The notes: a model not told the origin generated them from the letters alone. Positions 289 through 9,480 are shown, counted from the stretch's first letter. The stretch is DNA of 9,480 nt from an uncultured archaeon (GCA_964463155.1 CAYXAY010000028.1:1-9480), one strand, 5' to 3'. Made by a program: numbers and translations.

Positions 289-2514
289 ATGCCAGACAAT
301 TATAAAAAAATCAAGGTTTCCAAAGAGATGCCTGGTGAAATCTACAGTTCAATATCTGTGGATTCAAGAGACTTCTCCAAACCTTCTGATAAGCTTTCTA
401 AGAAGAAATCAGACCGTTATGTTGACATCTGCAGAAAAATATACAACTGGCTTCCAAGTCTAGGGCATAATGGAAAATACACAGAGGAATATCAAAAGGC
501 AATTGATTTTCTTGATTGGGATCTTAATCCTCAAGAATATACAGCAGCAGTAAAGTTTACATTGATTGCAGGAATACTTATTGCTGTTCTTTTTTCTGGG
601 TTTATTTGGATTTTTTTAAATGAAATAATATCTAATGCCTTTGGCTCTCCAATCTTTGCCATGTTTTTAATTTTTGGTGTTCCGTTTTTATTGTTTTTTT
701 ATTTGTATAATTTTGTTTTAAGATATCCTTTAAAGAAAGTGCAGAATGAAAAAATAAAAGCTTTGACATTTGTTCCTGAAATCTTAGGTTACATGATTAT
801 GTCAATGAAATTGGTACCAAATCTTGAAAAAGCAATTGAGTTTGCTTCAGAGCACGGACATGGAAAGATTGCTGAGGATTTGAAAAAGCTTCTTTGGGAA
901 GTAAAAGTTGGAATAAAAAACAGTGTTGCTGAAGGTTTAGATGATTTGGCTTATCGTTGGGGAGATGTTTCAATTGAACTTAAGAAAGGGCTAATGAAGA
1001 TTAGGGCATCAATTATTGAATCTTCAGAAAGTAAAAGATTTCAGCTTCTTGACCAGACAATGAATGAGACTTTGGTTTCAGTCAAAGGAAAACTTGAAGA
1101 CTATGCAAGAACCCTAAACCAGCCAGCAACAGTTATGTTTTATCTTGGTATTCTTTTGCCATTGTTACTAATCATTGTTCTTCCAGTTGGTTCAGCATTT
1201 TCAGGTTCAGCTCTTGCTCAACCAATCTATTTGATTTTGATTTACAATATTGCAATACCTCTTTGTTGTTTTTTCTTTGCTAGGGGAATTATTAAGAAAA
1301 GACCACCAACCTACAATCCCCCAAATATTCCAGACGATTATCCTGGTCTTCCAAAAAAGAACCATGTTAGATGGAACCAAACCCAAATAAATGTTTTTAT
1401 TTTGATTGCAATTCTTTTGTTTGGTGGAATCTTTATTGGCTTTACTTTGCAAAAGACACTTGGAATGACAAAGGAAAAGGTTCTAGAAGAAGAGTTTGGA
1501 ACAGCAACGCCTGTTTGGGAATGTACAGACAGAGAGGTTTTACAAAAAAAAAACAATCCAGGTTTTGTTTGTGTGACACAGGAAAGGCAGTTTTGGCAAG
1601 ACCCTAAAAACTCTATTGTCCCATATTTCTTAATTTTTTCAATATTAATTTCTGTAGCGTTATCAATATCGCTTTGGTGTTATGCGACTAGCGTTTATAA
1701 AAGAAAGATTCAGTTGTCAACTGAGACTCAAGAAAAAGAGTTTAAGGACGCATTATACATTATTGCTAGTCGTCTTGGTGAGAATAAGCCAATTGAGGAT
1801 GCCTTTGACCATACAAGACATTTCCTACCAAAATCAATGGTTGCAAAGGATATTTTTGGTAAAACTGTCGATAACATTAGAGTATTAGGACTAACACTGG
1901 AGTCTGCTGTCTTTGACAGAACCTACGGCGCCTTAAAGAACAATCCTTCAACAATCATTAGAAGTGCTATGAGACTGGTTGTTGATTCTGTTCAGATGGG
2001 CGTTAATGTTGCTGCAAAGACCCTTATTTCTTATTCTATGCAACTAAGAAACACAGATGAGATTAATCGTTTGTTGTCAACTTTGATTGCAGAGATTACT
2101 GGAACATTAAACAGCATGGCTAAGTTTATTGGGCCAATAATACTAGGGGTAACAACCACTCTTCATAAGATAGTTATTTCAACTTTAGCATCAGTTGCTA
2201 GTAGTGGTGCTATCCAAGAGATGTCTCAGTCTCTAGAAAATATACAGAGTGGAGACATAGGAATGAATCTTGGTTCAATTTCTTCTTTTGGAAACGCAAT
2301 CAATGTCGATATTGTTGGTAAGCTTGCAGGCGCAACAACCTTTACAATTATTGTTGCGATCTATCTGATTGAGATAGTTCTAATTATGACTTACTTTACA
2401 ACAATGATAGAGCAAGAAAACATGATACTTGTTAAGCACAGGATTGCAAGTACTCTTCCAATTGCCGTTGCTTTGTTTATTATAACAATAATTTTAGCAA
2501 ACTTGATATTATGA
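289..2514 (+). CDS. Type IV filament platform protein, FlaJ/TadC/PilC (T2SS-F) family-like, 741 aa, ~9 TM
   Basis: Long ORF with only short nested or antisense ORFs competing. Hydrophobic segments read by eye at aa ~87-109, 120-144, 281-300, 311-332, 367-387, 444-467, 611-636, 682-703 and 721-741. There are two soluble ~120-aa repeats: aa ~155-275 (..ILGYMIMSMKLVPNLEKAIEFASEHGHGKIAEDLKKLLWEVKVGIKNSVAEGLDDLAYRW..) and aa ~483-600 (..FKDALYIIASRLGENKPIEDAFDHTRHFLPKSMVAKDIFGKTVDNIRVLGLTLESAVFD..). Both follow the helical T2SS-F pattern. Two such repeats separated by TM hairpins is the FlaJ/PilC architecture. The gene is followed by prepilin-like genes. The family call is pattern recognition, not a search result. 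Confidence 0.8.
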   Translation: MPDNYKKIKVSKEMPGEIYSSISVDSRDFSKPSDKLSKKKSDRYVDICRKIYNWLPSLGHNGKYTEEYQKAIDFLDWDLNPQEYTAAVKFTLIAGILIAVLFSGFIWIFLNEIISNAFGSPIFAMFLIFGVPFLLFFYLYNFVLRYPLKKVQNEKIKALTFVPEILGYMIMSMKLVPNLEKAIEFASEHGHGKIAEDLKKLLWEVKVGIKNSVAEGLDDLAYRWGDVSIELKKGLMKIRASIIESSESKRFQLLDQTMNETLVSVKGKLEDYARTLNQPATVMFYLGILLPLLLIIVLPVGSAFSGSALAQPIYLILIYNIAIPLCCFFFARGIIKKRPPTYNPPNIPDDYPGLPKKNHVRWNQTQINVFILIAILLFGGIFIGFTLQKTLGMTKEKVLEEEFGTATPVWECTDREVLQKKNNPGFVCVTQERQFWQDPKNSIVPYFLIFSILISVALSISLWCYATSVYKRKIQLSTETQEKEFKDALYIIASRLGENKPIEDAFDHTRHFLPKSMVAKDIFGKTVDNIRVLGLTLESAVFDRTYGALKNNPSTIIRSAMRLVVDSVQMGVNVAAKTLISYSMQLRNTDEINRLLSTLIAEITGTLNSMAKFIGPIILGVTTTLHKIVISTLASVASSGAIQEMSQSLENIQSGDIGMNLGSISSFGNAINVDIVGKLAGATTFTIIVAIYLIEIVLIMTYFTTMIEQENMILVKHRIASTLPIAVALFIITIILANLIL

Positions 2515-3053
2515 AATTAAAACTTTCAAGAAAAGGAGACAGTGAAAGCTTTGAGACTTTTCGTTTACTTATAGCTTTTGTTCTTGCAACAGCTGTTCTT
2601 GTAATTATAATAAGTATGATTTCAAGCACTAACAAGCAATCAATACTTATCAGTGAGCAGAAACTAAAAGAAGGAGTGCAATCAGCAGTAAAGAGTGCTG
2701 GAACAAGCGCAGAGTTTCCTTTTGTTATTGAGGACTTGATGCTTAGAGGAACAATATCAAAGACAACGATAAGCAATTACTCTGGGCTTTCAAAAGAATG
2801 TATAGCCTTTGTTGGCGGTTCTCAGATGATTCCTACAGATGTAAATGTTGATGGATTAAGAATAAAACCCTCATATCTTAAGATGAATATCTGGGTTTAT
2901 TGTAATTTCCAATCAAATAACCAAACTTTGCCATTGTCTTTATCTAGTCTTAGTGTAGATAGGCAGATAAATCAAGATTCTGATGTGTGTCCGAGATATT
3001 GTGTGTTTTTCTTTAATAGAAAACCTGAAGGCCTATATAACTCCGGAAATTAA
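2511..3053 (+). CDS. Prepilin-like protein with class III signal peptide (180 aa), translationally coupled to the platform gene
   Basis: ATGA start/stop overlap with the platform gene (2511-2514). N-terminus is MKLKLSRKG|DSESFETFRLLIAFVLATAVLVIIISMI (basic leader, Gly, acidic/polar residues, then ~22 hydrophobic residues). It has 4 Cys (97, 131, 160, 164). Length and the C-terminal motifs NIWVYCNFQSN and YCVFFFNRKPE parallel YKVIMCVICSNS and VICVIYPRKTR of the 3805..4335 product. Confidence 0.75.
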   Translation: MKLKLSRKGDSESFETFRLLIAFVLATAVLVIIISMISSTNKQSILISEQKLKEGVQSAVKSAGTSAEFPFVIEDLMLRGTISKTTISNYSGLSKECIAFVGGSQMIPTDVNVDGLRIKPSYLKMNIWVYCNFQSNNQTLPLSLSSLSVDRQINQDSDVCPRYCVFFFNRKPEGLYNSGN

Positions 3054-3100: not shown

Positions 3101-3598
3101 ATGAATATACTAACAAAAATCTTGTTTATAATTCTTGCAATAGCTGTACTTGCATTGGGTTTTTTAGTTGGGACCTTTATACTTATTTTTATATTTGCTT
3201 TATTGGTACTAATGACTTTGTTGTTTATAGTCATCTGGCTGTTTAACAACATAGTGACTGTGTTTAAAAGCAATCTTGCAAAGCTTGCCTTTAAATCCAT
3301 ATTCTCAATATTAGTAACTTATGGTATTATGGAGTTATTCTGGATATTTACAAGTAAATATTTCATTCAGATGGACAAGACAATAGCAATCTGCACTCTT
3401 TGGGTGGTAGCAGCCATATTCTTTGGAGCATTATGGTATTTACTACATATCAAGCATCAAAACAAAAAGCACCATCAATATCTTTGGGACGAATACAAGA
3501 GGGATTCTAGTAAGCTAAACACGTGGGATGCAATAATGATGGTAATCATGCCATCAATAATCCTTTATGTCTTTAATGCAGTTCATCTTATCATATAA
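3101..3598 (+). CDS. Hypothetical polytopic membrane protein (165 aa, ~5 TM) embedded in the pilin locus
   Basis: ATG preceded by AAGTGAT (3089-3095, partial SD). Very hydrophobic: ILFIILAIAVLALGFLVGTFILIFIFALLVLMTLLFIVIWLF, SIFSILVTYGIMELFWIF, IAICTLWVVAAIFFGALWYLL and AIMMVIMPSIILYVFNAVHLI. It has a His/Lys-rich loop HIKHQNKKHHQY. I recognise no family motif. Confidence 0.7.
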   Translation: MNILTKILFIILAIAVLALGFLVGTFILIFIFALLVLMTLLFIVIWLFNNIVTVFKSNLAKLAFKSIFSILVTYGIMELFWIFTSKYFIQMDKTIAICTLWVVAAIFFGALWYLLHIKHQNKKHHQYLWDEYKRDSSKLNTWDAIMMVIMPSIILYVFNAVHLII

Positions 3599-3804: not shown

Positions 3805-4335
3805 ATGTTAAAATTAAACAAAAAAGGACAAGCATCATCAACATTTCAATTATTGATTGCTGCAGTTGTTGCACTTGCAATACTTGGAGTTTTATTAAGT
3901 ATATTAAATGTAATTCCAGGAATGAACACAAAACCAGGAGATGCTACTAAAACCTTATTAAAAAGCCAAATGGATAGACCTGGAGAAGAACAATGCACCA
4001 CAAAAGTAACTTTTGATACAAGTTCTGCTAGATTATCTGCTGAAGCAATAACCACAGATACTGGATCAAATGCAGACCAAGTTTTTTTTGCTAATCCAGA
4101 AGAGCTCTCGCAATTTGAACCTAGTGGGACTGGGGGTGTAGAAAACCAATTACTTAAATATAATTCCACAAATACCTATAAAGTAATTATGTGTGTTATT
4201 TGTTCTAATAGTAAAACCGGGTTAGGAAATGCCATAGTGCTTAATCGTAGAGACGGTGATACGAACATAACTGTGCCAACTAGCATACAAGATAACCAAG
4301 TTATTTGTGTAATTTATCCAAGAAAAACAAGGTAG
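3805..4335 (+). CDS. Prepilin-like protein with class III signal peptide (176 aa); candidate major filament subunit
   Basis: N-terminus MLKLNKKG|QASSTFQLLIAAVVALAILGVLLSIL. It has its own promoter-like region and a strong SD. It has 4 Cys (64, 130, 133, 168), N-x-S/T sequons (NST, NIT), and a C-terminal Cys-hydrophobic strand-basic tail (QVICVIYPRKTR). Confidence 0.8.
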   Translation: MLKLNKKGQASSTFQLLIAAVVALAILGVLLSILNVIPGMNTKPGDATKTLLKSQMDRPGEEQCTTKVTFDTSSARLSAEAITTDTGSNADQVFFANPEELSQFEPSGTGGVENQLLKYNSTNTYKVIMCVICSNSKTGLGNAIVLNRRDGDTNITVPTSIQDNQVICVIYPRKTR

Positions 4336-4342
4336 ATAATTT

Positions 4343-4567
4343 ATGAACTTCAAACAAGAGTTTAAGAGGTTATTGATGGATAAGAGAGCTCAAGCTGATG
4401 GGGCTTCTACTCTCTATATGTTAATCATCATAGCCATAGTTGCTCTTGTCCTTATTTCTGTTATTAAACCTATGTTTAATAGCAGTATGAAAACACAAAT
4501 GAATGTTGCAGATTTGCCTAATCAAGGAACACCAGCTACACCAACGGTTAACAACACGCCTTCTTAA
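4343..4567 (+). CDS. Very short prepilin-like protein (74 aa from ATG 4343; 63 aa if translation starts at ATG 4376)
   Basis: ..MDKRA|QADGASTLYMLIIIAIVALVLISVIKPMF, followed by a short polar Thr/Pro-rich tail (PNQGTPATPTVNNTPS). It has no Cys. The internal ATG 4376 is preceded by GAGGT (4366-4370, 5-nt spacer) and would give a typical short class III leader. ATG 4343 is preceded by AGGT (4330-4333). The stop is the same either way. Confidence 0.7.
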   Translation: MNFKQEFKRLLMDKRAQADGASTLYMLIIIAIVALVLISVIKPMFNSSMKTQMNVADLPNQGTPATPTVNNTPS

Positions 4568-4610: not shown

Positions 4611-5207
4611 ATGAAAAATATATTTTTGATTAAAAGTAATAGAGCCCAAGCAAGTGCGCCTTTTGAAGTGCTTGTTGCTGTTATCCTTATGGGCTTTGTT
4701 ATTGTTGCTGGGACATGGGCATTAATGAATCTTTCACAAAGCACATGTATAGGAAACAAAAGACAAAGCATGAGTGAATTAAAAGAAGCAATAACGGATG
4801 TTGTTCTTGGTTCTGACTTAACAATCAAAAATATTAATTTTGATGTTCAACCTTGCTTTAAACAAAGCTATGAGTTTATTAATCTTGTAACCTATAATAA
4901 TCCTACAAAATGTAATGCTTATTGTGGTGGCGGAAACAACTGTATTCTTTTAGAATACACTTATGATGATGAAAAGACAAGAAAACAACCAATACCTCCA
5001 ATCTGTATGGATCTGCCCACAGCAATCAGTTTTGTTGACTCAACAGAATCTTGTGGAGTAAATAATGACGACTGGGTAGCAATGAACCTTATGCGAGGAC
5101 CAACTCAACAACGCAGTAACATAGTTTCAGGAAAATACAGGTTGTTCATGCAAAGCGGAACAAATAGTAATATTTCAAGACAAATGTGTTTTTTAAGAAA
5201 GATATAA
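4611..5207 (+). CDS. Cys-rich prepilin-like protein with class III signal peptide (198 aa)
   Basis: MKNIFLIKSNRA|QASAPFEVLVAVILMGFVIVAGTWAL. The predicted exported part has 8 Cys (STC, QPC, TKC, AYC, NNC, PIC, ESC, QMC). The C-terminus QMCFLRKI repeats the Cys-hydrophobic-basic ending of the 2511 and 3805 products. Confidence 0.75.
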   Translation: MKNIFLIKSNRAQASAPFEVLVAVILMGFVIVAGTWALMNLSQSTCIGNKRQSMSELKEAITDVVLGSDLTIKNINFDVQPCFKQSYEFINLVTYNNPTKCNAYCGGGNNCILLEYTYDDEKTRKQPIPPICMDLPTAISFVDSTESCGVNNDDWVAMNLMRGPTQQRSNIVSGKYRLFMQSGTNSNISRQMCFLRKI

Positions 5208-5208
5208 A

Positions 5209-5859
5209 ATGATTGAATTTTCTTTATCAAAACTAAATATGCTAATCTTTGTTACAGCAGTAGCAGCAATAGTTATATTTTTTATGGCAGCAGTAAATTC
5301 TAATATGAAAACAAGGCAAAGCTATGAGCTTGTCTACAAGGTTGGAAAAGAATTAAAGACTGGAATTGAAAGCAATAGCTATTGTACAGTTAAGTTCATA
5401 TATATCCCAAAAACAATACAAACAAATTCAGGAAGCTCTGATGTCTTTAATATAAAATATAAACTAAATATTTCTGTATACAATCGTGAGCCGAAAACAC
5501 TTGTGTTTGCTATTCTTGACCGAAAAACACATAAGCAAAGAATATATGCTGCAGAGTCAATTGATTACAATGGAGAGATTAAACTTTATAAGTCAAATTG
5601 TACGAATACTGATTGTAATATTGTACTAGTAGAAGACAGAAATTCAGTAGACTATGACCCTTTAAAGGCAAGTTCAATAGACACAACAATATTGTTTGCA
5701 AAAACTATAGATGATGGAAAGCCAAAGGTATATTTGATGCCTTGCCTTTATAAAAACGGCATATATTCTTGTAATGATTTTTTAAATAGTAATAACCTAT
5801 TTAAAATAATTCCGTGCTTAAAGTCTGTTCCTGAACTTAATGAGACGACGCCAACATGA
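5209..5859 (+). CDS. Exported/anchored protein with N-terminal hydrophobic helix, pilin-like but without a canonical [KR]-[GA] cleavage motif (216 aa)
   Basis: Starts 1 nt after the upstream stop (TAAAATG). N-terminus is MIEFSLSKLNMLIFVTAVAAIVIFFMAAV. It has 6 Cys in the exported part and sequons NIS, NCT and NET. Position inside the coupled pilin block supports a minor-subunit role. The pilin call itself is weaker than for its neighbours. Confidence 0.6.
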   Translation: MIEFSLSKLNMLIFVTAVAAIVIFFMAAVNSNMKTRQSYELVYKVGKELKTGIESNSYCTVKFIYIPKTIQTNSGSSDVFNIKYKLNISVYNREPKTLVFAILDRKTHKQRIYAAESIDYNGEIKLYKSNCTNTDCNIVLVEDRNSVDYDPLKASSIDTTILFAKTIDDGKPKVYLMPCLYKNGIYSCNDFLNSNNLFKIIPCLKSVPELNETTPT

Positions 5860-6359
5860 ACAAAAAAGGATATATCGGAGCAATTGGAGATGATCTTCCA
5901 AGTCTTATACCAATCTTTTTAGGTATAACAATCTTCTTTGCTGTGTTTTTAAACACCTACAATGTCTATAGAAACAACACAGACCTTTATTCCCTAAGAA
6001 ACGACGCAATTAACATTTCAGCAATCATGAAAGAAGAACCATTAATCTCTGATAGAAACCAGTTTTTAAAATCCTGTCAAAGAGTAAACACCAAATATAA
6101 TTGGAATGCATTTATTACTCCCGCGCATTTAAACTCGCAAAATTATGAGGGGCTTTCGCCTAATGACTTAAACAATAATGTGTTACTGCGCCATTGGGAT
6201 TCTTCTGTAACGGATTATCTAATCTGCAGTAATGATGGACTAGATATTTTAAAAAACGCACTAAAAACAAAAGATGTAACAATTTATAAATACCCAATAA
6301 GTGTTCAAGAAAAATTCTATGTTGCGCCTGCTTGGCTATATGTGGTTGTTTGGAAGTGA
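5856..6359 (+). CDS. Prepilin-like protein with class III-like signal peptide (167 aa)
   Basis: ATGA overlap with the upstream gene (5856-5859). N-terminus is MNKKG|YIGAIGDDLPSLIPIFLGITIFFAVFL. It has 2 Cys and sequons NNT and NIS. Confidence 0.65.
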   Translation: MNKKGYIGAIGDDLPSLIPIFLGITIFFAVFLNTYNVYRNNTDLYSLRNDAINISAIMKEEPLISDRNQFLKSCQRVNTKYNWNAFITPAHLNSQNYEGLSPNDLNNNVLLRHWDSSVTDYLICSNDGLDILKNALKTKDVTIYKYPISVQEKFYVAPAWLYVVVWK

Positions 6360-6367
6360 TTAAAAGG

Positions 6368-7171
6368 ATGTTACAAATAAAAACAAGAAAAGGACAAGCA
6401 GCAATAACAGACGCCTTATTCTTCTTATTGGTAATTGTGACCCTTTCTGTTCTTATGTTTAGATATTCTTCAACATATGGTTCAAGAATAGACCAAGCAA
6501 CATCAGACCTTTACTACAAAGAATACACAAACTCTGTTCTAAAAACAATATTTTATGTTTCTGCGCCATTAGATTACAATCTAAATCTTGAAGAAAGCAA
6601 GGAAAACGATTATCTTATGGCAATGGTAAAACAAGACTTTTATGCTCATGGAAAAATTGGGTTTTCTGATGTTAACAAGTTGTCCACTTCTAACTCGTCT
6701 AATGTAATCGACTACAGAGACCTTGCAAAATACCATCTTTATCACACAGTAAAAGCTACAATGGCCCCTTTAACCGCTCACGATTATTTGTTTTATCTTT
6801 ATAATACAGATAACGATTCATTTGCATATTTCATGATAAAAAACACGGATTTTAATCTTGAACAAATACCTTCCCTACCAAGAAATGCAAGTGCAAGAGG
6901 CATTGTTGTTTATGGTATAGCTGGCGAAATCAACTACTTATGTAATCCAAACAGCTATTCAGATGTCAGAGCAGTTGTCTCAAAATCTCCAAAGATATTC
7001 TCTTCATCAATACCTTTGTCTTTTGTGCATAATGAAACAGGAAGCGAGGACCAGACAGTAAAATTAACAGACCACACGATTGTTGCGACCTTTGCTCTTT
7101 GGCCAGCAACAGTTGATATTAACTCTAGTGTTTTAGAAAATCTTTCTTGTGAAATAGTAAATTTAAGTTAA
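6368..7171 (+). CDS. Prepilin-like protein with class III signal peptide (268 aa), largest of the set
   Basis: The track ORF begins at a TTG (6332) that overlaps the upstream gene by 28 nt. ATG 6368 lies 8 nt after the upstream stop and gives MLQIKTRKG|QAAITDALFFLLVIVTLSVLMF, the same leader type as 3805. It has 2 Cys and many N-x-S/T sequons (NSS, NDS, NAS, NET, NSS, NLS). Confidence 0.75.
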   Translation: MLQIKTRKGQAAITDALFFLLVIVTLSVLMFRYSSTYGSRIDQATSDLYYKEYTNSVLKTIFYVSAPLDYNLNLEESKENDYLMAMVKQDFYAHGKIGFSDVNKLSTSNSSNVIDYRDLAKYHLYHTVKATMAPLTAHDYLFYLYNTDNDSFAYFMIKNTDFNLEQIPSLPRNASARGIVVYGIAGEINYLCNPNSYSDVRAVVSKSPKIFSSSIPLSFVHNETGSEDQTVKLTDHTIVATFALWPATVDINSSVLENLSCEIVNLS

Positions 7172-7863
7172 AACTTTAATCCAAGTTCATCTGTTTCTTC
7201 ATTTTCTTCAGTAACTTCTTCTTCATCACCAAAGTTAAGCTTTAACTCTTCTTTTTCTTTCTTTTCTTTTTTTTTCTCTGCAGGCTTTTCTTTTGGTTTC
7301 TCTTCGTGTTTTTTACTTTTTGGTTTTTCTTCAGTCATTGCCTTTTGAAGATTTTCTTTTTCATCTTTAGTTCTTATGTCTTCTTTTTTATTTTCTTCAA
7401 CAACATCATCAATTACAAGTTCTAATTCTTTTCTATCCATTAAAAAATCAAAGTTTTCGCCTGTTCTAGATGCGACATCTGTTGTGTTTTCTGTACTTGT
7501 ATTTCTTCTTGAAGACCGGTAATGCGCATTATTCTTAACAGCTTGCTTAACGCTCTCTAGAGTTATATTTACATCTGTGTTTGATTTTGACAATTGTGAA
7601 TAAATCACATCAGTTATCTCATCAATATCAGGATTAATTGTGTTTTTCATATCTTTTAGAATTTTGTCAATGATTATTTTCTTTTCATCACTAGTTATTT
7701 CTTTTGATGGCTTTGAGGCAGAGAGGATTTCTGTTTTTTCTATCCTGTTTTCTTTTATAACTGATGTTTCTTTCTGTTTCTGACCAGCATTATACTCTAT
7801 CTCCCCATCCTTTTCTGTCCTGTAAAATCTTCTTTCTCTTCTCTTGATTTTAGTAATGTCCAT
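7168..7863 (-). CDS. Hypothetical highly charged K/E-rich protein (231 aa) with acidic C-terminal tail
   Basis: ATG (complement of 7861-7863) is preceded on the minus strand by AGGA about 9 nt upstream. The C-terminal third is low complexity (EEKPKSKKHEEKPKEKPAEKKKEKKEKEE) and ends in GDEEEVTEENEETDELGLKF. It has no TM segment or signal peptide. It converges on the pilin block with a shared TTAA (7168-7171) holding both stops. Confidence 0.7.
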   Translation of the reverse strand: MDITKIKRRERRFYRTEKDGEIEYNAGQKQKETSVIKENRIEKTEILSASKPSKEITSDEKKIIIDKILKDMKNTINPDIDEITDVIYSQLSKSNTDVNITLESVKQAVKNNAHYRSSRRNTSTENTTDVASRTGENFDFLMDRKELELVIDDVVEENKKEDIRTKDEKENLQKAMTEEKPKSKKHEEKPKEKPAEKKKEKKEKEELKLNFGDEEEVTEENEETDELGLKF

Positions 7864-7963: not shown

Positions 7964-8488
7964 ATGAACCAAATAATATCTACAATACTAAATTATGTAT
8001 GGGTTTTTATAAAAATACTGCTATTTAGTGCAGCAATGTCCTTACCATTTATTGGCGTAACATATTTTTTACAAAAACCATTTGATTGGCTTAGAACAAA
8101 GAAAAAACTAAGTTTTTCCTTGTCTTTGTTTATTACAATCTTTTGTTCATCATTCATTATTCTTATATTTGTTTATTTCTTGCCAATACTTGACAAATTT
8201 GCAAGATTTACTTTCCTAGAAGGAATTGCTTTTTTCTTTTTACAGATTGCAAGATTATTGCTTGTAAACCTATTATTCTCAGGAATGATTTTTATAATTG
8301 CAATGTTTATTGTATTATTGTATGATTCTTTTAAAGAAAAGAAAAAGACAAAAACAAAAGCCAAGCAGAAATCGTCTTTCTTAAAACTCTGGAAGGCATT
8401 TACTATGGTTTTCTTTGTTGTCTTTTTGTTTGTGTTCATTATTTTTCCAAAAATATTTGCAATAATTTTATATTTGATATTTATGTAA
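7964..8488 (+). CDS. Hypothetical polytopic membrane protein (174 aa, ~5-6 TM) with Lys-rich loop
   Basis: The sequence is hydrophobic throughout (VWVFIKILLFSAAMSLPFIGV, LSLFITIFCSSFIILIFVYFLPIL, IAFFFLQIARLLLVNLLFSGMIFIIAMFIVLLY, AFTMVFFVVFLFVFIIFPKIFAIILYLIF). It has a basic loop KEKKKTKTKAKQK. The stop lies 12 nt before the next ATG. Confidence 0.7.
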   Translation: MNQIISTILNYVWVFIKILLFSAAMSLPFIGVTYFLQKPFDWLRTKKKLSFSLSLFITIFCSSFIILIFVYFLPILDKFARFTFLEGIAFFFLQIARLLLVNLLFSGMIFIIAMFIVLLYDSFKEKKKTKTKAKQKSSFLKLWKAFTMVFFVVFLFVFIIFPKIFAIILYLIFM

Positions 8489-8500
8489 GGTGTTTTTCAA

Positions 8501-9480
8501 ATGAACGAGTCAATAAAAAAATTATGGGTTTTTTTCTTTCTAATAATTATCTGTAATAGTGTGTTTGCATATGGCATAGACCCTGACAGACTTTATTTTG
8601 CAGAAAGCACAAAGTCTTCAGATGGAGTTGTCTTTGATCGTGGAAACGGCTGTATGACTAAAAAGCTTTCTGAAAAGGAAGTTAACGCTTTATGGAGTAA
8701 GATATTGGTTAAAGGCTTTTCAGCAGACATTTTTGACTCTGACCAGCCAGCAAACCCAAAAAGAGAAACACTTAACAAAAATGAAGTAATACTTGCAGGA
8801 GCAGACGCAAAAGCAGGGGATTTGGCTTTAAAAAGAGAGATTCCTTCAAAGTTAATGAATCCAGCAGACACTCCAATGCTTATTGGTAAAACCTGTGAAG
8901 GGCCTTATGGTTACGGACTTAATCTTAAAGACACATTTAGAGTAGGAAGATGTACAGATCCTAATGGAGCATGTTATCTTGACGAACCAGGAATGTATAG
9001 ACAAAATGGATTAACTGGCTTTTGGAAAGAAACAAAATCAGTTACAAAAGATCTCTTTGTTGGAGTAAAAGATATGTTTAAAGCAGATACTAATACTGAA
9101 GCCAACAACACAATAAAGGAAAATCTTGATGTTTTTTCTGACATGTCAACCTACGAGATTCAAAAGATTCAGGAATCAATGCAATCAAACAATGTTAATG
9201 CTTTAGAACTTGAAACCTGGTCAGCAATAAGCGACAAGGTTATTCAAAATTCTTCAAAGACTACAAACTTCTTAGTAACAATGCAAACAACCTGTAGTGG
9301 AGAAAACTGTTACATCAACACATATTCTTTATTTGACAAAATGTTTAATCAATATTTTTCTATAGATATGGTTTACAGTTCAGCAACTCCTTTCTTGTTT
9401 AATGGCGCAGCAAGAATATTTACTGTTCCTGGTGTAAAGAATGCGGTTATGAAACCAACAAAATGGATGAAAGATAAAGG
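8501..9480 (+). CDS. Secreted protein with Sec-type signal peptide, N-terminal 326 codons; continues beyond the window
   Basis: Hand translation from ATG 8501 (GGTG at 8489-8492, 8-nt spacer) gives MNESIKKLWVFFFLIIICNSVFA|YGIDPDRLYFAESTKSSDGVVFDRGNGCMTKK...GKTCEGPYGYGLNLKDTFRVGRCTDPNGACYLDEPGMYRQNG...TTCSGENCYINTYSLFDKMFNQYF...KPTKWMKDK. There is no stop through base 9480. The n-h-c signal has V-F-A at -3..-1. The mature part seen so far has 6 Cys, including C-x6-C and C-x4-C pairs. It is missing from the ORF track because there is no stop in the window. The - strand ORF 8593..8871 is its shadow. Confidence 0.8.
   Translation, partial: MNESIKKLWVFFFLIIICNSVFAYGIDPDRLYFAESTKSSDGVVFDRGNGCMTKKLSEKEVNALWSKILVKGFSADIFDSDQPANPKRETLNKNEVILAGADAKAGDLALKREIPSKLMNPADTPMLIGKTCEGPYGYGLNLKDTFRVGRCTDPNGACYLDEPGMYRQNGLTGFWKETKSVTKDLFVGVKDMFKADTNTEANNTIKENLDVFSDMSTYEIQKIQESMQSNNVNALELETWSAISDKVIQNSSKTTNFLVTMQTTCSGENCYINTYSLFDKMFNQYFSIDMVYSSATPFLFNGAARIFTVPGVKNAVMKPTKWMKDK

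Follow-up and report, generated by a model that had tools for sequence, protein, structure and literature searches.

We analyzed a block of four consecutive genes, designated A, B, C, and D, at positions 4,611 to 7,171 of a 9,480-nucleotide stretch of DNA from an uncultured archaeon (GCA_964463155.1 CAYXAY010000028.1:1-9480), and concluded that the encoded proteins are most likely the minor pilins, present in low abundance, of the type IV pilus machine encoded beside them, which would be components of a kind already known. The whole stretch, hereafter called the window, is an entire contig of ~9.5 kb with a G+C content of 32% (A+T, 68%). Its host is a small, uncultured archaeon of the Iainarchaeota/Diapherotrites (DPANN), and the locus is an archaeal Epd/Tad-like type IV filament locus, in which a divergent gene for a PilC/TadC-type platform protein is followed by seven pilin-like genes. 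The reading that we favor, and to which we assign a probability of roughly 0.6, is that A–D are minor pilins which form a set specific to this lineage and are produced at equal, low levels, that A, C, and D are cleaved by a class III peptidase, and that the four proteins associate through their N-terminal helices in a sub-complex which starts or decorates the filament. A first-pass annotation, made from the sequence of the window alone, had regarded A–D as pilin-type proteins of an archaeal type IV filament locus, and our findings support that assignment.

Gene organization and start signals

The four genes and the putative promoter element that precedes them are as follows.

4611..5207, + strand: A, pilin-like protein of family A, 198 amino acids
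5209..5859, + strand: B, pilin-shaped protein of family B without a leader, 216 amino acids
5856..6359, + strand: C, pilin-like protein of family C, 167 amino acids
6368..7171, + strand: D, pilin-like protein of family D, 267 amino acids
4580..4587, + strand: TATA-like box TTTAAATT, read from the sequence, 24–31 nucleotides (nt) 5′ of the ATG of A

The TAA stop codon of A (5205–5207) is separated by 1 nt from the ATG of B at 5209; the stop of B and the start of C share the sequence ATGA (5856–5859) and so overlap by 4 nt; and the TGA stop of C (6357–6359) is followed after 8 nt by the ATG of D at 6368. The gene coordinates and the spacing (+1, −4, and +8 nt) previously reported for the block were thus confirmed on the sequence. 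The length of 268 residues given earlier for D includes the stop codon, and the protein actually has 267. For D, open reading frame (ORF) calling gives a TTG start at 6332, and alignment of the orthologues favors the ATG at 6368. In the case of B, there is an in-frame TAA four codons 5′ of the ATG, with no start codon among the four codons between, and a longer leader is therefore impossible. Each of the four proteins has exactly one hydrophobic segment, at about residues 11–38.

No Shine–Dalgarno-like GGTG or GGAGG was found 5′ of position 4,611. Both the lack of such a site and the presence of a TATA-like box upstream of A had been pointed out before, and both were seen here. A similar box lies at the same distance from A in the relatives L001, L007, L016, L017, L019, L012, and L002 (down to ~56% identity of the platform protein), which suggests a leaderless A-B-C-D transcript. 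A TATA-like box on its own is weak evidence, given that the genome is 68% A+T, and it is the conserved position that counts.

Conservation of the four-gene block

The window and three relatives served to construct family hidden Markov models, and related loci were collected in two scans. The platform-anchored scan, with one genome per GTDB species, gave 209 stretches with the platform protein, from which 80 loci were taken. In the C-anchored scan, metagenome contigs were searched for family C only, with the pattern G[PA]IGDDLPS, which gave 196 loci. Gene order is nearly invariant: the platform gene, U, Maj (1–3 copies per locus), Sm, A, B, C, D, (a minus-strand gene), and a membrane protein, where U, Maj, and Sm are the three other pilin-like genes. 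Among the 46 platform-anchored loci with enough sequence, A-B-C-D was complete in 37 and partial in two (one of them cut by a contig end), and was lacking within 10 kb in seven. In the C-anchored set, the complete block is present in every locus whose flanks are long enough on either side (34/34), and, more generally in that scan, D follows C in 46/46 cases and A precedes C in 42/42.

The internal order of the block is retained even where the block itself has moved. It lies 5′ of the platform gene and in the opposite orientation in L039, L065, L078, and L084, and likewise in L076, which is cut by a contig end; L125 carries another rearrangement of A–D, again with the order kept. Median gaps within the module are 6 nt (A–B), −4 nt (B–C), and −4 nt (C–D), and those upstream of it are 71 nt (U–Maj), 65 nt (Maj–Sm), and 37 nt (Sm–A). 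Based on the strict co-occurrence and the tight gaps, we conclude that A–D are a co-inherited, translationally coupled unit. The synteny is in keeping with the coupled module proposed in the first-pass annotation, and one coupled, co-conserved block of four genes, a trait of sets of the GspH/I/J/K type, is indeed what A–D present.

The same data bear on the simplest objection, namely that A–D are chance or mis-called ORFs in an A+T-rich contig. The low G+C content and the lack of any database annotation would fit such an explanation, but it is refuted by the presence of orthologues at 20–75% identity in more than 100 independent contigs, with length, order, and motifs all kept, and structure models of the proteins (described below) reach a predicted local distance difference test score (pLDDT) of 94. 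We consider that there is practically no chance of its being correct.

N-terminal motifs and globular heads

Each family has a distinct N-terminal motif, and the four motifs are kept across 37–48 orthologues each. In family A it is [KR]-[GA]↓Q-E-S-A-P-F-E-L-L-V-A-V-I (the arrow marks the predicted cleavage site), with Q, P, and F invariant in 43/43; in family C, K-[GA]↓(F/Y)-(I/L)-G-(P/A)-I-G-D-D-L-P-S-L-I-P, with G, I, G, D, D, P, and S invariant in 41/41; and in family D, [KR]-[GA]↓Q-A-A-I-T-D-A-L-F-F-L, with invariant Q and D. Position −2 is K or R in 42/43 orthologues of A, 39/41 of C, and 36/37 of D, and position −1 is G or A without exception (43/43, 41/41, and 37/37, respectively). The +1 residue is Q in A (43/43) and D (37/37), and F or Y in 40/41 orthologues of C. 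The leaders of these three proteins comprise about 4–12 residues. A short, positively charged leader that ends in Gly or Ala, a trait of type IV pilins, is therefore present in A, C, and D. These families also have an invariant Glu or Asp at mature positions 6–8 (+7 in A, +6 in D).

Family B differs in both respects, as it has neither the leader nor the acidic residue. Its proteins start M-(L/I)-x-F-x-L-S-K-x-N-L-L-I in 44/44 orthologues, with invariant Ser7 and Lys8. A search of 1.84 billion proteins for homologues of B gave 91 cluster representatives, most of which align with the window protein residue 1 to residue 1. B had been described in the first-pass annotation as lacking a canonical cleavage site, and this holds for the family, since no orthologue has a cleavable leader and most of the representatives start at the same Met.

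In all four families, conservation is concentrated at the N-terminus, where the frequency of the commonest residue averages 0.67–0.75 over the first 30 mature residues, as against 0.36–0.38 for the rest of the protein (~2-fold). A single N-terminal hydrophobic stretch of ~20 residues that is conserved best of all is a trait of type IV pilins, and the four proteins share it. The conserved cysteines of the heads number seven invariant and two nearly invariant in A, four in B, two in C, and two in D, and C ends in an invariant Trp. The heads look mutually unrelated, as had been noted before: hhalign probabilities between the four families are below 1%. Compared with the other families of the locus, A resembles U and Maj in its N-terminal helix only (hhalign, 83–90%), and B, C, and D are unrelated to all of them. 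The 105 homologues of D are all hypothetical proteins without Pfam domains. With homologues found in numbers of 105 for D and 91 for B, A–D appear as four new families whose relatives are confined to Iainarchaeota.

When all members of families A–D, ~140 in total, were scanned with Pfam, the matches were isolated and due to chance. Profile searches with A–D revealed no significant match among PDB sequences; that of A to the type IV pilin PilE1 ranked first (E = 0.047, not significant) and was confined to the N-terminal helix. In Methanococcus maripaludis, the prepilin peptidase EppA acts on pilins with a short leader ending in Gly and with Gln at +1 (PMC3875500). We considered whether A–D belong with these EppA-substrate (DUF361-type) pilins and rejected the assignment. 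A and D do share G or A at −1 and Q at +1, but their acidic residue is displaced from +5, to +7 and +6, respectively; in C, position +1 is F or Y; and there is no Pfam match. The relationship is one of resemblance and not of membership. Membership in the GspH/I/J/K or FimU/PilV/W/X families was likewise rejected, with no sequence match in Pfam, NCBIfam, or PDB.

The diversity of the heads raises the possibility that A–D depend on the platform and their class III signals for export or display only, as a separate short pseudopilus, a second filament, or cell-surface adhesins or binding proteins in the manner of a bindosome. Four unrelated, Cys-containing domains of extracellular type would suit such a role, as would the module's own putative promoter in the window's clade and its ability to sit apart from, or opposite to, the platform gene. 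There is also a precedent in M. maripaludis, whose main pilus does not depend on several of the pilin-like genes, and these may serve to build other structures (PMC3875500). Nevertheless, neither the ~140 family members nor the comparison with PDB revealed any similarity to substrate-binding or adhesin families; strict 1:1:1:1 co-occurrence in a fixed order points to one complex; and the module is nearly always found directly 3′ of the genes for the major and short pilins. We therefore regard export or display alone as distinctly improbable. A bindosome-type identity, which the first-pass annotation had named as an outcome that would speak against its own reading, was rejected because no substrate-binding protein family was matched by the window proteins or the ~140 orthologues; nor did any other non-pilin family emerge from Pfam, NCBIfam, or PDB.

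Structural models of B and D

AlphaFold2 models based on the family alignments were made for B and D. The model of D (pLDDT 93.6; predicted template modeling score [pTM] 0.84) has a helix at residues 7–63, two short helices, and a five-stranded antiparallel sheet. Its Cys192/Cys261 pair is conserved and, judging from the model, could tie the C-terminus to the sheet as a disulfide. The model of B (pLDDT 94.0, pTM 0.86) has a helix at residues 2–53, nine β-strands, and a short, helical, Cys-containing tail. Both proteins are therefore predicted to have the pilin "lollipop" architecture, that is, a continuous helix of 52–57 residues carrying a β-rich head, and the long N-terminal helix with a β-sheet head that is typical of type IV pilins is seen in both models.

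When the two models were compared with PDB using Foldseek, no match of either reached E ≤ 0.001. GspK and other pseudopilins are absent from the 50 listed matches of D, as are FlaF and FlaG from the 50 listed for B; the weak matches of B include several fibronectin type III (FnIII)- or immunoglobulin (Ig)-like domains. On these grounds, and given that B has no Pfam match, an identification of B as a FlaF/FlaG-type protein was rejected.

The fold of B is nonetheless relevant to an alternative in which some or all of A–D, with B as the strongest candidate, are not filament subunits at all, but accessory parts of the machine, bitopic proteins that are retained in the membrane and serve to align, anchor, or gate the filament where it crosses the cell envelope, with a function akin to that of FlaF/FlaG in the archaellum or PilN/PilO/GspL/GspM in bacteria. 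B has neither leader nor cleavage motif in its 44 orthologues and 91 representatives, and an uncleaved N-terminal helix with a β-rich head is the architecture of FlaF (PMC4425475). Furthermore, the equal stoichiometry expected from translational coupling suits a machine sub-complex as well as it does a tip complex, and a conserved small membrane protein is encoded after the module. Set against this are the strict class III motifs and acidic residues of A, C, and D, which would be unexpected in mere membrane anchors, the pilin-like continuous helix of 52–57 residues, the Foldseek results for B given above, and the absence of any match to the Pfam archaellin, FlaF, or FlaG models. On balance, we think it unlikely that some or all of A–D are accessory parts, and continue to prefer minor pilins.

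The filament machinery and three further pilin families

The genes on the plus strand follow the order platform, U, a 165-residue membrane protein, Maj, Sm, A, B, C, D, a 174-residue membrane protein, and a giant secreted protein. The genes upstream of the block are listed here.

289..2514, + strand: platform protein, 741 amino acids, a polytopic, divergent T2SSF protein of the PilC/TadC/FlaJ type with 354 homologues
2511..3053, + strand: U, pilin-like protein, 180 amino acids, its start overlapping the platform stop (ATGA)
3101..3598, + strand: protein of 165 amino acids with about four hydrophobic helices, between U and Maj
3805..4335, + strand: Maj, pilin of 176 amino acids, the major subunit presumed in the first-pass annotation
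4343..4567, + strand: Sm, short Flp/EpdE-like pilin with a conserved leader, 74-residue precursor without a globular domain
1–200, − strand: small 4Fe-4S ferredoxin gene, 5′ of the platform gene in the window's clade

Scans of the window for tRNAs and Rfam families gave no matches. When all proteins of the window were compared with Pfam and NCBIfam, nothing credible emerged, and the pilin-like proteins matched no model. The platform protein of the window itself is not matched by Pfam T2SSF, and an hhalign test for an internal duplication in it was negative. Some of its 354 homologues, on the other hand, carry PF00482 or are annotated as type II secretion system F family protein. Wherever a source is named for a homologue, it is Candidatus Diapherotrites/Iainarchaeum or an unclassified archaeal metagenome-assembled genome.

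There is no ATPase gene within the window, nor is there one 5′ of the platform gene in its clade, where the ferredoxin gene lies, and the ATPase of this organism must be encoded elsewhere. In the distant relatives L003 and L004 (44% identity), a 764-residue T2SSE ATPase is encoded directly 5′ of the platform gene (in L003 at 7700–9994, with a long N-terminal extension). Among proteins of solved structure, those related to it best are afGspE (2oap), which is an archaeal secretion ATPase, CpaF, the ATPase of the Tad pilus, and FlaI. It is the platform protein of the T2SSF family, together with this adjoining ATPase, that identifies the locus as an archaeal filament locus of the Tad/Epd type. Being encoded together with a platform and an ATPase is a further trait of type IV pilins, here seen in the window for the platform and in L003/L004 for the ATPase. 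Just upstream of the pilus ATPase, L003 also has an exosortase/archaeosortase-family gene (EpsH, 5922–6470) and a gene for a surface protein of 2,797 residues, which hints at a larger cell-surface gene island.

U, Maj, and Sm, like A–D, each have a single segment of strong hydrophobicity, which lies close to the N-terminus. The N-terminus of U in the window is RKG↓DSESFETFRLLIAF, and the consensus of its orthologues is KG↓QAFE.FRLLI. U is a paralogue of Maj (hhalign, 99.3% over the full length and 90.8% for the globular part alone). It occurs in 76/81 loci with the platform gene and always adjoins that gene, even where A–D are elsewhere, and is a candidate for a fifth minor pilin, outside the original four-gene set. 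Maj has the motif K-G↓Q-A-F-S-T-F-(Q/K)-L-L-I, with G or A at −1 and Q at +1 in 50/50 orthologues, and a Shine–Dalgarno-like GGTGA 8–9 nt 5′ of its start. Close relatives have an extra Maj paralogue (L001, 13430–14209), whose C-terminal half resembles a pilin head and whose N-terminal half has several hydrophobic segments and no class III signal.

The start of Sm is probably at 4343 and not at 4376, because the resulting 16-residue leader (MNFKQEFKRLLMDKRA↓Q) is kept in the orthologues. A leader ending RA↓Q, followed by ..LYMLI..IAAL.LIAVIKPMF, is conserved in 55 loci, and there is a weak Pfam match of Sm to Flp_Fap (E = 0.068). By analogy of size and shape with EpdE/MMP1685 of M. maripaludis and with bacterial Flp, Sm, rather than Maj, may be the subunit of the fiber. 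Counting the products of 2511, 3805, and 4343 (4376 in the earlier call) together with A–D, the locus has seven pilin-like genes, and the organization of one major and four minor pilins that was suggested for it is too simple. The 165-residue protein between U and Maj is confined to the close clade of the window (16 loci) and has no family match.

A proposed route to filament assembly

In the window's clade, A–D would be transcribed as a unit from their own TATA box into a leaderless mRNA, and translational coupling would yield the four proteins in roughly equal, low amounts. Each would be inserted into the membrane by its N-terminal helix, after which a class III prepilin peptidase (of the EppA/PibD type) would cut A, C, and D after [KR]-[GA] and leave B uncut. 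Through their conserved N-terminal helices, the proteins could then assemble on the PilC/TadC-type platform as a sub-complex with stoichiometric composition. The sub-complex would start the filament and stay attached to it, and the filament itself would be made of one or more abundant pilins, which may be the short, Flp/EpdE-like Sm and/or Maj. Since B has no acidic residue and an invariant Lys8, where A, C, and D have an invariant Glu or Asp, it would be the best candidate for the first (distal) member or for one retained in the membrane. The earlier idea that the largest member, D, caps the complex in the way of GspK or PilX found no support: an invariant Asp is retained in D (mature position 6), and Foldseek gave no significant match for its model.

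A bolder version of this scheme would have A–D as an independently evolved archaeal priming complex with inverted charge logic, in which leaderless, never-processed B is the nucleating distal subunit. If so, the buried lysine of B would dock the Asp or Glu at mature positions 6–8 of C, D, and A, in place of the pairing between N-terminal amine and Glu5 in bacterial pilins, and A–D, as four families with no known relatives, would represent the first case in which the initiation complex of a type IV filament has been defined in archaea, and in DPANN. We regard this as a long shot, and return to the less specific reading, that of a minor-pilin set which starts or decorates the filament.

Several observations weigh against that reading as well. 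All database copies of A–D are named hypothetical protein, and no similarity to a known minor pilin, pseudopilin, or archaeal pilin was detected in Pfam, NCBIfam, or PDB sequences, or by Foldseek for B and D. The Pfam Class_IIIsignal model matches none of A–D at E ≤ 1, nor any other member of the four families. Support from the fold is confined to B and D, the two proteins that were modeled. Among the neighboring ORFs of the loci that were fetched, there is no credible candidate for a prepilin peptidase (polytopic, with a G.GD motif), and the processing of A, C, and D is therefore assumed. Finally, the seven platform loci without A–D in 10 kb of downstream flank comprise four with the arrangement platform-U-Maj-Sm (L030, L037, L058, and L075), in three of which (L075, L030, and L037) unrelated genes follow Sm, and three with platform-U only (L026, L045, and L047). 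A–D may thus be dispensable, or be encoded elsewhere in these genomes.

Downstream neighbors

Three genes follow the block in the window.

7168..7863, − strand: Lys/Glu-rich protein, 231 amino acids, its end overlapping the stop of D
7964..8488, + strand: small polytopic membrane protein, 174 amino acids, found after the module by synteny
8490..9480, + strand: start of a giant protein with a Sec-type signal, which runs off the end of the window

The Lys/Glu-rich protein is probably cytoplasmic. Two motifs are retained in its orthologues, RRERRFYR at the N-terminus and DELGLKF at the C-terminus, and the distant orthologue in L003 ends instead in a zinc-ribbon domain. The 174-residue membrane protein is encoded after D in at least 35 loci of the platform-anchored set and in many of the C-anchored set, and it is by this synteny that we link it to the module. 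In L001–L003, the giant protein has 1,543–1,772 residues and no Pfam domain; by analogy with proposals for other archaeal loci, it could be an adhesin or an S-layer-like partner of the pilus.

Significance

The DPANN comprise tiny archaea, most of them uncultured and many dependent on a host. For attachment, the prime suspects are their surface filaments, and the components of their pili are almost all annotated as "hypothetical". To our knowledge, how an archaeal type IV filament is initiated has been answered genetically in Methanococcus only, and has received no structural answer. A–D offer a compact candidate set for how such a filament starts, the most unusual detail being B, which is shaped like a pilin and always leaderless.

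The first-pass annotation had overstated the novelty of the module, as multiple archaeal minor pilins were already known (PMC3875500; PMC4858521; PMC6393860). Genetic evidence has established that M. maripaludis requires four minor pilins for piliation (PMC3875500); for many archaeal loci, Makarova, Koonin and Albers (2016) predicted sets of five or more minor pilins (PMC4858521); and Makarova and colleagues (2019) described DPANN pilus loci with unrecognizable signal-peptide-bearing proteins that are presumably pilins (PMC6393860). With several minor pilins per archaeal pilus locus already in the literature, the present locus is an extension rather than a surprise, and its novelty is modest. 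What is new is the definition of four families in a strictly modular organization, confident pilin-like models of B and D, and a member that is always leaderless and has an invariant lysine. The locus thus yields four unannotated families and three more pilin families, with signature motifs and gene order. Using these motifs, the strict order of the genes, and the models for two of the seven families, ~200 genomes of Iainarchaeota could be better annotated.

Comparison with known systems

In bacteria, GspH/I/J/K and FimU/PilV/W/X are sets of four co-transcribed minor pilins or pseudopilins with unrelated heads, made at similar, low levels, whose tip complex primes assembly; GspK lacks the equivalent of Glu5. 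A–D resemble these sets in being a four-gene, pilin-like block with unrelated heads beside a major pilin. They differ in matching no pilin or pseudopilin family in Pfam or among PDB sequences, where the matches listed were weak and unrelated, and in being encoded with machinery of the archaeal Tad/Epd type. The position of the missing acidic residue also differs from that in GspH/I/J/K, since the acid-less member here is leaderless B and not the largest protein.

With the bacterial Tad/Flp system, in which the major pilin Flp is accompanied by the pseudopilins TadE and TadF and by TadG, the locus shares a very short, headless, Flp-like pilin, a CpaF-like ATPase, and extra pilin-like proteins. 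In contrast to the two accessory proteins TadE and TadF, there are four here, and no member of A–D has a Pfam match to the TadE family. No secretin or Rcp components were seen in the locus; they would not be expected in an archaeal host with a single membrane. For the Tad system itself, an origin from archaeal systems of the Epd kind has been proposed (bioRxiv 10.64898/2026.04.22.720090).

The comparison with FlaF and FlaG of the archaellum concerns B only. Like them, B is predicted to be monotopic, with an uncleaved N-terminal helix and a β-rich extracellular domain (PMC4425475), but it is encoded in a pilus locus, without archaellin genes, and not in an archaellum operon.

The Epd pilus of M. 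maripaludis, which is "system 1" of the archaeal type IV filaments, differs from the present system in several ways. Sequence homology between the pilins of the window and Epd pilins was not detectable, the acidic residue is at +6 to +8 here and not at +5, B has no leader of any kind, and one platform gene of double length replaces two. A–D also form one compact, coupled block, whereas the pilin genes of M. maripaludis are found at several loci. The two systems are nevertheless alike in their components. In both, a very short, headless pilin, which in M. maripaludis is the major pilin EpdE/MMP1685 with its 74-residue precursor (PMC3875500; bioRxiv 10.64898/2026.04.22.720090), is accompanied by four larger or additional pilins (EpdA, EpdB, EpdC, and EpdD in that organism); the leaders of A, D, and Maj end in [KR]-[GA]↓Q, and those of the Epd pilins are short, with Gly as the last residue and Gln at +1; and the ATPase in relatives of the window is of the archaeal afGspE/CpaF/FlaI type.

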